39,178 bases of DNA from Solirubrobacteraceae bacterium (lineage in GTDB: Bacteria; Actinomycetota; Thermoleophilia; Solirubrobacterales; Solirubrobacteraceae), in the NCBI GenBank assembly GCA_030655275.1, contig JAURVW010000746.1, positions 1-39,178 on the forward strand. Reading direction: 5' to 3'. The position numbers and the translations under genes are program-made. Numbering within the stretch: position 1 is the first letter of the stretch; each line of letters begins with the position of its first letter. The notes under the pieces were generated by a model. The model searched no databases and had not been told where the DNA came from. It was given only the letters and a program-made list of their open reading frames with translations. Below, in pieces: positions 28,131 to 39,178 of this stretch.

Positions 28131-28205
28131 GCGCCACCACAAAAAGTGGTCAGCCTCATCCGCCAAGGGGTCGATTGCAGCGGGACACCGCAACCTTCAC
28201 CTGTG

Positions 28206-28211
28206 TAGCGT
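28206..28211 (+). promoter_or_regulatory. Possible -10 hexamer TAGCGT for the leadered secreted-protein gene
   Basis: It matches the TAnnnT class, lies ~85 nt upstream of ATG 28295, and has no good -35. Confidence 0.3.
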
Positions 28212-28294
28212 GTCTCAAGTCACGGAAGGCCCAGCGCAACAATGCGCTCGGCTTGAGGCCTCGCCCAACATCCCTGAAAACGGAGTCCACCTTC

Positions 28295-29056
28295 ATGCGT
28301 CCCCTTTCCCGTCTCATCGCGCTCGGCGCCATGTCCGCGCTCGTCGCGGCGCCGTCCGCGATGGCCGCCAACAGCGCCACCGCCTCGCTCTCGCCCAACA
28401 AGGGTGGCACCGTCACCCAGGCCGCCCCGGTGAAGTTCAAGGTCAAGGCCCTCCTGCCGGACACCCCGTCGGACACGTCCGGCAACAACCGCCTGCTCGC
28501 CATCCAGGCGAAGCTCCCGGTGCCGTTGCTGTTCAACACCCTTCCGTTCTCGCAGTGCAACACGGTGTCGTTCCCGACGTCGAAGTCCTGCCCGTCGTCG
28601 ACGAAGCTCGGTACGGCCACGATCCTCGCCGACGGTGGCCCGAGCGTCGGTGAGATCACCGCGAAGGCGACCCTCTACTTCGGCACGGGCTTCACCGTCC
28701 TGGCGAACGTGACCGTCGACAAGCCGGCCATCATCAACGAGGGCGTCGTCGGTTCGCTGCGCTCCTCCGGCACCACCGGGTACGGCCTGGAGATGTACAT
28801 CCCGGTCCCGCAGAGCCTCTCGATGCCGCTGCAGGATCTCTACCCGACGGTCAAGTCGGTCGACGCCGACTTCGCGCCGCCGAGCAAGAAGGTCAAGGTC
28901 GGCAAGGAGCGCATCACGGTCCCGCTCGCCGGTCTCGGTACGTGCCCGTCCAGCAAGAAGCTGAACTTCCAGGTCAACGCGCTCTACACCGACGCGACCG
29001 GCGTGACGATCACCAAGAACGACAGCGCTTCCACCACGGCGAAGTGCAAGAAGTAA
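28295..29056 (+). CDS. Secreted hypothetical protein, 253 aa
   Basis: GGAG lies 9 nt upstream of ATG 28295. The signal peptide is MRPLSRLIALGAMSALVAAPSAMAAN. G/C-ending codon bias is strong. The C-terminus is TTAKCKK, and a strong terminator follows. The N-terminal 324 aa of the listed 577-aa ORF are a shadow over the DsbA-like gene. Confidence 0.7.
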   Translation: MRPLSRLIALGAMSALVAAPSAMAANSATASLSPNKGGTVTQAAPVKFKVKALLPDTPSDTSGNNRLLAIQAKLPVPLLFNTLPFSQCNTVSFPTSKSCPSSTKLGTATILADGGPSVGEITAKATLYFGTGFTVLANVTVDKPAIINEGVVGSLRSSGTTGYGLEMYIPVPQSLSMPLQDLYPTVKSVDADFAPPSKKVKVGKERITVPLAGLGTCPSSKKLNFQVNALYTDATGVTITKNDSASTTAKCKK

Positions 29057-36712: not shown

Positions 36713-37537
36713 TCAGACCGGCTGGTCGTGCGGACACCACCAGAGTGTCCGGCCAGCCAGCGGTTCAGAACTCACGGGGCCACCGCAGGTGTAGCAGCGC
36801 ACTCGCTTGTAGACGCACTTGCCCTTGGCGCGCGGTATCCGACGACGCGCCGCGGAGGTGCGCGGGGCGTCGGGGATCGTGACGATCATCCCGTCTCCCA
36901 ACCCCTGCTTGAGTTGGGCCTGCATCCGCACCCAGAGGGCCAGGCCCTCATCCTCGCTCAGCGAGTTGGCCGCGCGGTGCGGATGCATGCGCTCGGCATG
37001 GAGCGCCTCGGCCCGGTAGACGTTGCCGATCCCGGCGACGACGCTCTGGTCCATCAACGCCTCCGCGATCGAGATCTTCCGGCGCGAGAGGGCGGCCAGG
37101 AAAAGCGCGGGATCGCCGTCGCGGCGCAGCGGGTCGGGCCCCAGTCGCGCGAGCAGCTTGGCCTCGACGGGCGGCGGCAGCAGCTCGCAGATGGTCGCGC
37201 CGCTGAGGTCGATGGTCCACGCCTCTCCGACCATGCGCAAGCGCTTCTGGCCGGTCGGATCGCGCGGCGGCGAGGCCTGACGGAAGAACTTGCCGAAGAG
37301 ACCGAGATGCACGTGGAGCGTGCGCTGGTCGGCCTTGCGCACGCGGCCCTCGGTCGCCGGCGCGAACCGGTAGAGCAGGTGCTTGCCATGGGCGTCGATC
37401 CGCCGGAGCACGAGGCCGTCGAGCTCGGCGGCCGTATCGGCCGACCGGCCCTGGGGCGACGTCACCGCGACCGGCGCACCGCCGAGGTCGCGCATCTGAT
37501 CGCGGGCGGCGGCATGGATGGTGTGTCCCTCGGGCAC
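36713..37537 (-). CDS. nei: Fpg/Nei-family DNA glycosylase (endonuclease VIII-like)
   Basis: The N-terminus is (M)PEGHT. The H2TH motif is LMDQSVVAGIGNVYRAEALH. The C-terminal zinc finger is CYTCGGPV...WWCPHDQ. The start is GTG 37537, with TAGGCT 6 nt upstream. Confidence 0.9.
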   Translation of the reverse strand: MPEGHTIHAAARDQMRDLGGAPVAVTSPQGRSADTAAELDGLVLRRIDAHGKHLLYRFAPATEGRVRKADQRTLHVHLGLFGKFFRQASPPRDPTGQKRLRMVGEAWTIDLSGATICELLPPPVEAKLLARLGPDPLRRDGDPALFLAALSRRKISIAEALMDQSVVAGIGNVYRAEALHAERMHPHRAANSLSEDEGLALWVRMQAQLKQGLGDGMIVTIPDAPRTSAARRRIPRAKGKCVYKRVRCYTCGGPVSSEPLAGRTLWWCPHDQPV

Positions 37538-37543
37538 TGCTTG

Positions 37544-37549
37544 AGCCTA
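37544..37549 (-). promoter_or_regulatory. -10-like hexamer TAGGCT (minus strand), 6 nt before nei GTG
   Basis: The minus strand reads TAGGCT-CAAGCA-GTG. Confidence 0.5.
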
Positions 37550-37763
37550 CGAAGCAACGTGGCGTCGGGCTCACGACGTCGCCTCGATCCCATCGCCCCG
37601 GGCCCACGACCGGGACCGAGATCCGATCGTCCTCGCTCGCGTTGCGCCTTCACCTCCCGTTCCCTTCGCTGAACGGCGTCGTCGAGGACCCTGCCGCCCG
37701 GTCGCTCCACGCGGTACTGAGCGAAACCACAACGACGGAAATGCGCCTGGAATGTCGAAACGC

Positions 37764-37793
37764 TTGTTTGACCAGATTCCGGTGTTGTACCTT
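37764..37793 (+). promoter_or_regulatory. Promoter-like element TTGTTT-18 nt-TACCTT in a locally AT-richer patch
   Basis: The -10 fits the TAnnnT class used at 15 genes here. No ORF follows. It would drive the candidate ncRNA. Confidence 0.3.
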
Positions 37794-38031
37794 TGTCGTG
37801 TGACAGGGATCGCCCCGGTTCTTGTCACTTGCCATCAATAATCTTCCCGGCCTGGCTTCCTCCCCCCGGACCAGCGCTCTTCCAACTCCACCGGCCAAGA
37901 CGCTTGCGTCGGCCACCGGGGGAGACGGGGACTCGGGCGTAGCGGCAGGATCGCTGCTGCGCCCGACAACCGTCACAGCAGCCCGTCGCACGACTCCCCG
38001 ATGTCTTCGGGGAAATGGCGACGAGCTGTGG

Positions 38032-38189
38032 TCCGTCTGTCCCGAGACGGATCTGTCCCGACACTCGAAACACCCCGTTCCCCGGTCCCGCGGCGGAACG
38101 CGTCCCAGATCCCAGCCCGCTCCTGGTCCCGCAGGAGCATCGTCCCGAATACCGCTCCCTGGTCCCGCAGGCGAGCACCGTCCCAATAC
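38032..38189 (+). repeat. Four degenerate tandem units (35-46 nt) of hairpin with GTCCCG loop plus GTCCC(G/A) linker
   Basis: Loops lie at 38039, 38085, 38126 and 38162. Linker motifs lie at 38055, 38102, 38142 and 38180. Stems are CCGTCT/AGACGG, TTCCCCG/CGGCGGA (one mismatch), GCTCCTG/CAGGAGC and GCTCCCTG/CAGG(c)GAGC. Confidence 0.8.
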
Positions 38190-38240
38190 AAACGGACCAC
38201 GGTCCCGGTAGCGCTCAGCTACCGGGACCGTGGTCCGTTT
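38190..38240. terminator. Bidirectional intrinsic terminator (23-bp perfect stem)
   Basis: AAACGGACCACGGTCCCGGTAGC-GCTCA-GCTACCGGGACCGTGGTCCGTTT. T-rich runs flank it on both strands. It lies 41 nt past the permease stop codon. Confidence 0.75.
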
Positions 38241-38280
38241 CGTTCGTGGGCGGCGTTCTTGCCGTTGCGGCCGTTCCTTT

Positions 38281-39178
38281 CTAGACGGCTTCGAGGGCGG
38301 GCAGGGATGGGGCGAGGTCGTCGGCGTTCGCCTCGGCGTCGGGAAGGATATGGCCCTGCGCCTTCACGGCGCCGTAGACGACGGCACCGACGACCGCGAT
38401 CACCGCCATCGAGATGAGGCAGCCCCACTCGACGTACCAGGAGAGACCGAGCTCCCGGGGCCAGGCGATGTTGACGATCTCGAACGCCAGCCAGGCCACC
38501 GCGAGGGCATTGATCGTGGTGCCGTACTTGCCGAGCTTGATGCCGACCTCCCCGCCGGTGGGCGACGGGTCGAAGCCCTCCCGCACCCGCAGGATCAGGA
38601 GCGCGACGAGCGGCAGGAAGAACGAGACGTAGAAGCCGACCGTCGCCAGGCCGATGAGCGTGTCGTAGAACTTCAGCGACACCGCGACGACCAGCAGGAC
38701 GGCGGCGATGCCTGACGTCACGAAGATCGCGTTGATCGGCAGGTGCTCGCGGCCCGAGAGCTTGCCGAGCGTGGCGGAGGCCGGCAGGACCTTGTCGCGG
38801 GAGAGCGCGAAGACGACGCGCGACACCGCGGCCTGCACCGCGACCAGACCGGCCGTGAAGCCGGTGCAGACGACGATGAACATCGGCGTGACGATCCAGG
38901 AGCCGAAGGCGGACTCGAGGGTCATGGCGATCGGGTCGACGACGTTGCCGGCGGCGATGGCGCCGAGGTCCGGGATGGCCAGGACGAGCGCCAGGCCGGC
39001 GTACATCACGATCGAGGCAACGAAGACCAGCGAGAAGATGAGCGCCTTCGGGACGTTGACCCGCGGGTTCTCGACCTCCTCGGCCACGGCGCCCGCCGTC
39101 TCGAAGCCGATGAACGCCCAGCCGACGAGCGAGACGGCGACGAGGAACCCGCCGAAGGTGTAGCCGCTGCCGCCGTCC
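38281..39178 (-). CDS. APC-superfamily amino acid permease, C-terminal part (5' end outside the window)
   Basis: The frame stays open to the window edge. FIGFETAGAVAEEVENPRVNVPKALI is the typical APC motif, and several hydrophobic helices follow. The listed GTG 39087 is internal. Confidence 0.85.
   Translation of the reverse strand, partial: DGGSGYTFGGFLVAVSLVGWAFIGFETAGAVAEEVENPRVNVPKALIFSLVFVASIVMYAGLALVLAIPDLGAIAAGNVVDPIAMTLESAFGSWIVTPMFIVVCTGFTAGLVAVQAAVSRVVFALSRDKVLPASATLGKLSGREHLPINAIFVTSGIAAVLLVVAVSLKFYDTLIGLATVGFYVSFFLPLVALLILRVREGFDPSPTGGEVGIKLGKYGTTINALAVAWLAFEIVNIAWPRELGLSWYVEWGCLISMAVIAVVGAVVYGAVKAQGHILPDAEANADDLAPSLPALEAV

Follow-up and report, generated by a model that had tools for sequence, protein, structure and literature searches.

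The spacer between nei and a permease gene in contig JAURVW010000746.1 of a Solirubrobacteraceae bacterium (GCA_030655275.1) very probably contains a genuine conserved non-coding RNA gene on the + strand, judging from its comparison with five homologous copies. Throughout, the window means the whole stretch of DNA analysed, 39,178 nucleotides (nt) long. Our preferred reading goes further: we propose, with a probability of roughly 0.4, that 37764-38250 (+) is a non-coding RNA gene transcribed on its own, whose structured product would act in trans by C-rich base-pairing. An undescribed + strand small RNA (sRNA) running from a promoter at 37764 to a terminator near 38245 had been suggested by a first-pass annotation of the sequence, and the homologues, the Rfam searches and the repeat checks supported it. 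The predicted RNA would be ~445 nt long here and ~210-360 nt long in the relatives. It would be built of two parts, a conserved 5' domain (CUUCC, a C-loop hairpin, a nested hairpin and a GGGAC core) and a 3' module displaying GUCCC(G/A). The host belongs to a rarely sampled soil actinobacterial lineage, and the RNA gene looks real and previously undescribed.

Conservation of the element in related genomes

Closer relatives of nei (72-86% identity, metagenomic) were found in the protein database and their contigs were compared. Five other contigs, with nei 74-80% identical to that of the window, had a homologous element that matched in position and strand and was oriented divergently from nei. 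The full element was present upstream of nei in L082, L083 and L087, and L089 and L092 contained its 5' two-thirds up to the contig end. Promoter position, stem pairing (with compensatory changes) and loop motif were all conserved in these spacers. From the comparison, conservation of sequence and structure, the strand and a modular change in copy number could be shown, and as comparative evidence this makes a good case for a real RNA gene.

The most widely conserved block was the upstream core and not the hairpin array on which the first-pass annotation had placed its emphasis. The element did prove to be homologous elsewhere, but the strongest constraint fell on 37925-37974, which that annotation had mentioned only in passing as a possible CGGGCG/CGCCCG pairing. 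This pairing is real (arms 37933-37946 and 37953-37966) and forms the most conserved part of the element. The core hairpin, H3 (37925-37974, +), consists of a 14-bp stem, UCGGGCGUAGCGGC / GCUGCUGCGCCCGA, with the loop AGGAUC (AGGAYC across copies), and it was near-invariant in the six sequences although the adjoining nei proteins were only 74-80% identical to that of the window. The shared block of ~60 nt (window ~37917-37974) reads GGGRGAGACGGGGACUCGGGCGURGCGGCAGGAYCGCUGCYGCGYCCGACAACCGUC. At the base of H3, ACGG/CCGU flanks an internal loop GGAC/CAA, and the GGGAC carried there, which is the complement of GUCCC, was retained in five of the six cores. The corresponding core sequence was GGGGCC in L089 and GGGACA in L092, as against GGGGAC in the others. 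These two contigs (L089 1-79 and L092 1-79, both on the - strand; run SRR24994259, two strains) end at the identical base inside the core hairpin, probably because of an assembly break at a sequence common to the two strains.

Upstream of the core lies H2 (37886-37924, +), in which an outer helix CUCCACC(GG)/(CC)GGGGGAG surrounds an inner hairpin GACGC-UU-GCGUC. The outer helix followed the consensus CUCCNCC/GGGRGAG. The inner hairpin differed by genome (GACGC/GCGUC, GGUGGCG/CGCUGCC, GGCGACG/CGUCGCC or GGCAC/GUGCC), with changes on both sides at four of seven pairs and 95% of cells paired in the six sequences. H1 (37850-37877, +) has a variable stem, which is CUGG/CCAG in the window, CUGGU/ACCAG in L089, UGGCU/AGCCA in L092 and GCCGG/CCGGC or GUCGG/CCGGC in L082, L083 and L087. 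Its C-rich loop (CUUCCUCCCCCCGGA, 37856-37870) contained a run of five to six C in all six copies; the other loops were GUCCCG or AGGAUC. Just 5' of H1, the first conserved hairpin, a conserved CUUCC (37843-37847, +) was unpaired in the folds and occurred at this place in five of the six copies, L083 having CUUUCC there and CUUCC further 5'. A hairpin at the very 5' end (GUGACAGGG...CUUGUCAC, 37800-37828, +) was seen in the fold; it was common to L089 and missing in L082, L087 and L083.

A covariance model (R1), comprising H2 and H3 and built from the four full copies, scored 98-103 bits on these training copies and 52-57 bits on the two partial copies outside training. Nothing else scored above 25 bits in the 706 kb searched, which came from 88 sources, among them the remainder of the window and 80 nei loci of other Actinomycetota. 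In the alignment of six sequences, 95.4% of the cells were paired, versus 35-56% when the partners were slid by 1-3 columns. Changes on both sides occurred at five pairs, four of them in the H2 inner helix, a count reached by 4 of 500 shuffles, and the covariation score was reached by 0 of 500. The covariation is supportive and not decisive, because the alignment was fitted to the model and has six rows.

The element was not found to be dispersed. A search for repeats of the core with at most 3 mismatches gave one copy in the window, and no stretch with more than 5 GTCCC per 200 nt was present in loci L001-L080. Other hairpins with a GTCCC loop occurred at the background rate, mostly with 5-6 bp, and those in the window were mostly inside coding-like open reading frames (ORFs). 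A 9-bp hairpin, GGTTGCGGT-GTCCCG-CTGCAATC, stood at ~28165-28195 (-) in the last codons of the ORF 28156-28674, and this lone GUCCCG hairpin may be due to chance. A dispersed repeat of the repetitive extragenic palindromic (REP) kind, the possibility the first-pass annotation had wanted checked, was rejected: the 39-kb window and ~0.7 Mb of related loci held only the six syntenic copies.

Further afield, the species-representative genomes, which do not include the host, had nei at most 58% identical (best 54-58%, Patulibacter and Solirubrobacteraceae), with no GTCCC cluster and no match to the covariance model. The RNA was also absent at two more distant nei loci, L088 (73% identity) and Svornostia abyssi (59%, where nei lies in a purine operon). 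A scan of metagenome contigs for the pattern of the core ends returned three matches, which we attribute to chance because all lacked the hairpin and were inside ORFs; the collection evidently did not include the samples of L082 and L087. A scan of viral contigs found nothing. Among the relatives of nei, the P0002 and P0011 contigs end 39-67 nt upstream of nei. In the P0007 contig (ENA ERZ1305449), a 1.4-kb nei-permease spacer is filled by an ORF call of 297 aa on the RNA strand with no Pfam match, and this may be a spurious call across an extended form of the RNA.

The GUCCC motif and the hairpin array

Downstream of the core, GTCCC starts on the + strand at 38039, 38055, 38085, 38102, 38126, 38142, 38162, 38180 and 38202. 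Seven of the copies are GTCCCG and two are GTCCCA, exactly the tally of the first-pass annotation; four lie in hairpin hexaloops, four in linkers and one in the terminator stem. Within 38030-38210 (181 nt) nine copies compare with 0.18 expected from the background of 77 copies on both strands of the 37.8 kb outside the locus (Poisson P ~6e-13). Dinucleotide shuffles of the array stretch (n=5000) contained 1.9 GTCCC on average and 8 at most, never 9. Loop and linker copies alternate, with spacings of 16-18 nt and 20-30 nt. All four of the proposed hairpins with a 6-nt GUCCCG loop were recovered in the minimum-free-energy fold, which had a z-score of -7.45 on the + strand versus -5.30 on the - strand. 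When the full-length RNA was folded, seven of the nine GUCCC copies were fully unpaired, and the loop copy was unpaired in every homologue.

Unit 1 of the array (38028-38069, +) contains a hairpin at 38031-38052 with its core stem at 38033-38050 and the loop GUCCCG, followed by a linker GUCCCG at 38055. The hairpin reads CCGUCU-GUCCCG-AGACGG, and its position and loop motif are those of the single hairpin of the homologues. Its loop context CUGUCCCGAG matched L082 exactly; compare UUGUCCCGAA in L087 and CCUGUCCCAACC in L083. Unit 2 (38070-38116, +) has a hairpin at 38078-38097 with the loop GUCCCG and one bulge, and a linker GUCCCA at 38102. Units 3 and 4 (38117-38189, +) have hairpins at 38119-38138 and 38154-38176 and linkers GUCCCG at 38142 and GUCCCA at 38180. 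Between the core and the array lies a variable connector (37979-38028, +), the sequence of which was not kept in the homologues; here a hairpin CCCCGA-UGUCU-UCGGGG (37996-38012), already suspected by the first-pass annotation, folds inside a stem 37979-37989/38018-38028.

Each of the three homologues with a complete 3' part had a single GUCCC hairpin, versus four in the window: GGCCAGCU-GUCCCG-AGCUGGCC in L082, GGCUGGUU-GUCCCG-AACCAGCC in L087 and CUUCGACCGG-CCUGUCCCAA-CCGGUCGAAG in L083. The stem differed in each genome and the loop retained (U)GUCCC(G/A)A; with unit 1 of the window included, all four stems were different. In the relatives a GUCCCG also occurs directly 3' of the core, where it is able to pair with the core GGGAC, and L082 has an extra linker copy. 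Since the relatives carry one such hairpin, the GUCCC-presenting hairpin is taken as ancestral and the four-unit array as confined to this lineage; that is, the hairpin of the first-pass annotation has homologues but its four-hairpin form is lineage-specific. The same annotation had argued that the stems vary while pairing is kept, which would not be plain duplication. However, units 3 and 4 are just that, a recent tandem duplication (period 36, 2.0 copies, 87% matches). The argument stands for unit 2, in which two stem positions are altered on both sides relative to unit 4 (U-A to C-G and C-G to U-A), and for the homologues, which show compensatory changes.

Promoter, terminator and strand

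The promoter-like element announced at 37764-37793 (+) is present, with a -35 hexamer TTGTTT (37764-37769), an 18-nt spacer and a -10 hexamer TACCTT (37788-37793). It scored under the threshold of a simple consensus scan, yet it aligned with the promoters of the homologues, which were better matches: TTGACG-17-TATCGT in L082 and L087, TTGATG-17-TAACGT in L083, TTGGTC-17-TAGCAT in L089 and TTGCCA-16-TACCAT in L092. That of L082 was also picked up by the consensus scan. The homologue promoters follow a sigma-70-like pattern (TTGnnn, 16-18 nt, TAnCnT), and the equivalent aligned position was occupied on the + strand in all six copies. Transcription would start near 37800.

At the other end, a bidirectional intrinsic terminator occupies 38190-38250. 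Its 23-bp stem (38190-38212/38218-38240, 5-nt loop) is a 23-nt inverted repeat with 100% complementarity, with the ninth GUCCCG inside at 38202, as the first reading of the sequence had claimed. T-rich tails are present on both strands (UUUCGUUCGU on the + and UUUGUAUU on the - strand), and the stem-loop 38190-38240 with TTTCGTTCGT (+) and TTTGTATT (-) has the make-up of a Rho-independent terminator. The sequence GTGGTCCGT at 38028-38036 recurs in the 3' arm of the terminator at 38230-38238, and its first copy is perfectly complementary to the 5' arm at 38192-38200. It is possible that 38028-38036/38192-38200 forms a 9-bp alternative helix that closes the whole array and competes with the terminator. 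Between nei and the RNA promoter, the spacer contains another sequence, GACCGGGACCGAGATCC at 37608-37624 (+), which shares 82% identity with the terminator 3' arm at 38220-38236 and may be the remnant of an older hairpin copy.

Several lines of evidence agree with the + strand that had been assigned to the RNA. In every copy one core pair is U·G and another G·U, which fits the + strand only because they would be A·C mismatches on the - strand, and a third pair occurs as AU, GC and GU. Extra G·U pairs were seen in the outer stems of the GUCCC hairpins of L087, L083 and the window. The RNA is richer in C than in G along its length (GC skew -0.17 to -0.29), the aligned promoter points the same way, and a - strand reading puts the array downstream of the strong 23-bp terminator.

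Locus and association with nei

The spacer is flanked by genes for an Fpg/Nei glycosylase (36713-37537, -) and an APC-family permease, the latter represented by its C-terminal part (38281-39087, -). The RNA gene would be divergent from a leaderless nei and convergent with the permease gene, and the bidirectional terminator would serve both the RNA gene and the permease gene. The ~740-nt spacer had been described as free of any credible ORF. ORFs do exist there, the longest of 178 aa, but none bears a coding signature: the three that were scanned (89, 129 and 178 aa) had no Pfam matches, no frame of the spacer showed coding-like third-position GC, and the indels among the homologous elements were not multiples of three and shifted the reading frame. 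The coding reading was rejected on these grounds. The 129-aa spurious ORF across the RNA found zero relatives in the protein database. In every copy one frame runs through the core without a stop codon, a frequent occurrence at 71% GC. A search for tRNA and tmRNA genes found none present.

Between the permease of the window and those adjoining the RNA in L082 (3907-5457) and L083 (1086-2654), identity is only 26%. The only close relative of the window permease, in L090 (73%), is directly followed by a DUF429 gene and has neither nei nor the RNA. For these two reasons the permease was a poor anchor for searches. On the nei side the same gene order recurred: a hypothetical gene, DUF429 (as seen in the homologue loci), enoyl-CoA hydratase, short-chain dehydrogenase and M42 peptidase. 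Because the permeases are not orthologous and the nei-side order is kept, the RNA travels with nei as a divergent pair, and on this comparison the block of RNA, nei and hypothetical gene behaves as an insertion or deletion unit. In L082 (3621-3729, -) and L083 (817-925, -), Guanidine-I riboswitches (RF00442) scored 83-84 bits versus a gathering score of 63. They stand upstream of a DUF1989 gene, in L082 followed by a carboxyltransferase gene, and the DUF1989 operon is divergent from the RNA-adjacent permease in both loci.

A -10-like hexamer TAGGCT (37549 to 37544, - strand) ends six bases before the GTG start of nei at 37537. The sequence 'gagcctacg' ahead of nei recurred unchanged in L082, L087 and L089 and in variant form in L083 and L092, and nei appears to be leaderless. 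The distance between the core and the nei start ranged from 220 to 390 nt.

Proposed function and alternative explanations

That the RNA is transcribed, acts in trans and base-pairs with targets, we infer. Base-pairing was ranked first because the conserved unpaired motifs are pyrimidine- or C-rich, which is the signature of sRNAs that pair with G-rich or Shine-Dalgarno sequences. The exposed GUCCCG, CCCCCC and CUUCC would pair in trans, through short G-C-rich duplexes, with G-rich sites in mRNAs, namely GGGAC or Shine-Dalgarno-like sequences. Translation or stability of the mRNA would be lowered without need of a chaperone, as in 6C RNA. The hairpin-plus-linker unit would have been multiplied to four by tandem duplication with stem pairing kept, and extra motif copies might provide more capacity or avidity. 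Several observations weigh against this proposal. The invariant motif is only 5-6 nt long and suits protein binding as well as a seed; the core is near-invariant beyond what pairing demands, as though a protein or some other partner recognised it; and since the core GGGAC is complementary to each GUCCC copy, the motif could act intramolecularly. Moreover, the power of the covariation is modest, since there are only six sequences from one narrow uncultured clade and the counting alignment was fitted to the model. A conserved target was not found either: one GGGACA near the nei start was seen in the window and L081. A role for the nei mRNA as such a target was rejected, since at codons 4-5 this GGGACA is lost by synonymous change in L082, L083 and L087.

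The RNA could instead be a sponge in which GUCCC(G/A) binds an RNA-binding regulator, the core recruits or stabilises the complex and the copies set the capacity, by the logic of CsrB, RsmZ and CrcZ although with another motif. Loops and linkers sharing one motif, with one to four hairpins among close relatives, are what such a sponge would look like; the invariant 5-6 nt include G and U and are therefore more specific than C-richness, and the core sequence is kept beyond pairing needs. However, little would be titrated by a relative with a single loop, no protein is known that could be the partner and none is encoded adjacent to the RNA, and no RNA-binding protein is known to recognise GUCCC. 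We consider a sponge unlikely, though it is the main rival. Action of the motif within or between copies of the RNA, where GUCCC would compete for the core GGGAC and tune core conformation, stability or multimerisation, seems to us distinctly less probable. It would make sense of the GGGAC in five of six cores, of the adjacent 3' GUCCC that pairs with it in the L082, L087 and L083 folds, and of the window, where the flanking copy is mutated to GUCAC while distal copies increased; the 9-nt GUGGUCCGU at 38028 can also pair with the terminator 5' arm at 38192-38200. But a 5-bp contact is weak, an interaction at one site needs no nine copies, and the L089 core is GGGGCC, in a contig that ends before the 3' part.

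Two further explanations do away with the + strand RNA. If the functional transcript were the - strand, as a permease 3' untranslated region or read-through, the loops would read CGGGAC, fitting a hexaloop with a central GGA for a CsrA-type protein; the hairpin does lie 10-40 nt past the permease stop codon in L083, L087 and L082, and this strand folds well too (z-score -5.3). We regard it as very unlikely, since the window array lies beyond the 23-bp terminator, the adjoining permeases are not orthologous (26% identity) and the element follows nei, the invariant G·U pairs of the core and those of the hairpin stems turn into mismatches, and the scan found no promoter there while the + strand promoter is conserved. 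Hardly any weight falls on the idea that there is no RNA gene but a DNA-level element (for example a nei operator palindrome together with either a REP-like terminator cluster or a local tandem repeat) or a gene for a small protein. The core is indeed an imperfect palindrome between divergent promoters, and the one frame open through it in all copies could be read as coding. Yet the core lies 220-390 nt from the nei start, its wobbles are kept as G·T instead of being perfected, AU, GC and GU are exchanged at one pair, the stems change by compensation around fixed loops, and no further copies occurred in the window or the related loci. As for a protein, homologues and Pfam matches of the scanned ORFs were lacking and the indels shift the frame.

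Possible significance

To our knowledge, riboregulation in the deep-branching Actinomycetota (Thermoleophilia, Solirubrobacterales) has hardly been studied, and a literature search on it returned nothing relevant among the ten best-ranked matches. If real, the gene would add a conserved RNA family with a fixed core and a short-motif display module of changing copy number. This modular design would offer a way to study how a regulatory RNA gains capacity by tandem duplication, and with an invariant short motif and a complementary sequence in the core, specific hypotheses can be framed and tested by mutation. One bolder idea, which we hold to be rather doubtful, is a modular decoy RNA in which an invariant core and an expandable GUCCCG cassette titrate an RNA-binding regulator or GGGAC-bearing RNAs. 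If true, the regulatory principle of CsrB would recur here with a new motif, in a lineage that is not known to rely on either CsrA or Hfq, and the class Thermoleophilia would have its first described riboregulator. The six copies known so far are all from uncultured organisms, which for the present limits their practical value.

Comparison with known RNA families

No Rfam family reached its gathering score anywhere in the window. At E<=10, only microRNA-type models matched within 37500-38320, on the terminator hairpin, and these were rejected as an artefact that any long perfect hairpin produces. At E<=5 the element was unmatched in L082, L083 and L087, so that neither the window nor these homologues fell into an existing family, as the first-pass annotation had supposed. 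A K-turn motif was rejected by reading the sequence. ANTAR targets are tandem hairpins whose hexaloops have A as the first and G as the fourth base; the loops here are GUCCCG (or CGGGAC on the opposite strand), and with no Rfam match this class was rejected as well.

RsaE/RoxS-type sRNAs of Firmicutes pair with Shine-Dalgarno regions through unpaired UCCC or C-rich regions. The element resembles them in its several unpaired UCCC motifs over loops and linkers (seven of nine GUCCC unpaired), but it belongs to another phylum, has no structure in common with them and carries an invariant G and U before CCC; the RsaE/RoxS covariance model had no match in the window, L082, L083 or L087. Shine-Dalgarno targeting may be less general here because many genes, nei included, look leaderless. 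In the sponge RNAs CsrB and RsmX/Y/Z, a short motif in loops and linkers and a variable copy number are typical. The element is like these and CrcZ in that a short motif is reiterated in loops and linkers and its copy number varies by tandem duplication. However, its + strand motif is GUCCC and not GGA or CA-rich, GGA being repeated in loops on the - strand only, its relatives have one loop, and there was no Rfam match. The RsaE/RoxS and CsrB comparisons of the first-pass annotation stay analogies.

Among actinobacterial RNAs, Ms1 and 6S are likewise structured RNAs of the abundant type, a few hundred nt long and with a housekeeping-type promoter. The element differs from them in its multi-hairpin folds, with no rod with a central bubble, and had no Rfam match. 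The Ms1 gene neighbourhood consists of a HAD-IB hydrolase and an oxidoreductase (PMC9130861); these neighbours were not seen around the RNA, whose flanks are nei and the permease. Another parallel in design is 6C RNA (RF01066; B11 in mycobacteria), also a stand-alone sRNA of high-GC Gram-positives with several hairpins, whose C-rich loops recall the CCCCC(C) loop of H1, the one loop here with a run of five to six C. In mycobacteria, 6C loops pair with G-rich mRNA sites without a chaperone (PMC6486639). Unlike 6C, the RNA here is far longer (210-445 nt), has a near-invariant core hairpin that is not C-rich, repeats GUCCC(G/A) instead of a C6 run and has been found only in a narrow Solirubrobacterales-related clade; the 6C model gave no match at gathering score in the window, at E<=10 in 37500-38320 or at E<=5 in L082, L083 and L087. 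On these comparisons the element is not a member of 6C, RsaE/RoxS, CsrB/Rsm, ANTAR, Ms1 or 6S, because model matches fail and defining motifs or neighbour genes are absent. We would classify it as a new sRNA family with a familiar design logic, which combines the C-rich exposure of 6C and RoxS with the reiterated modules of CsrB and Rsm.

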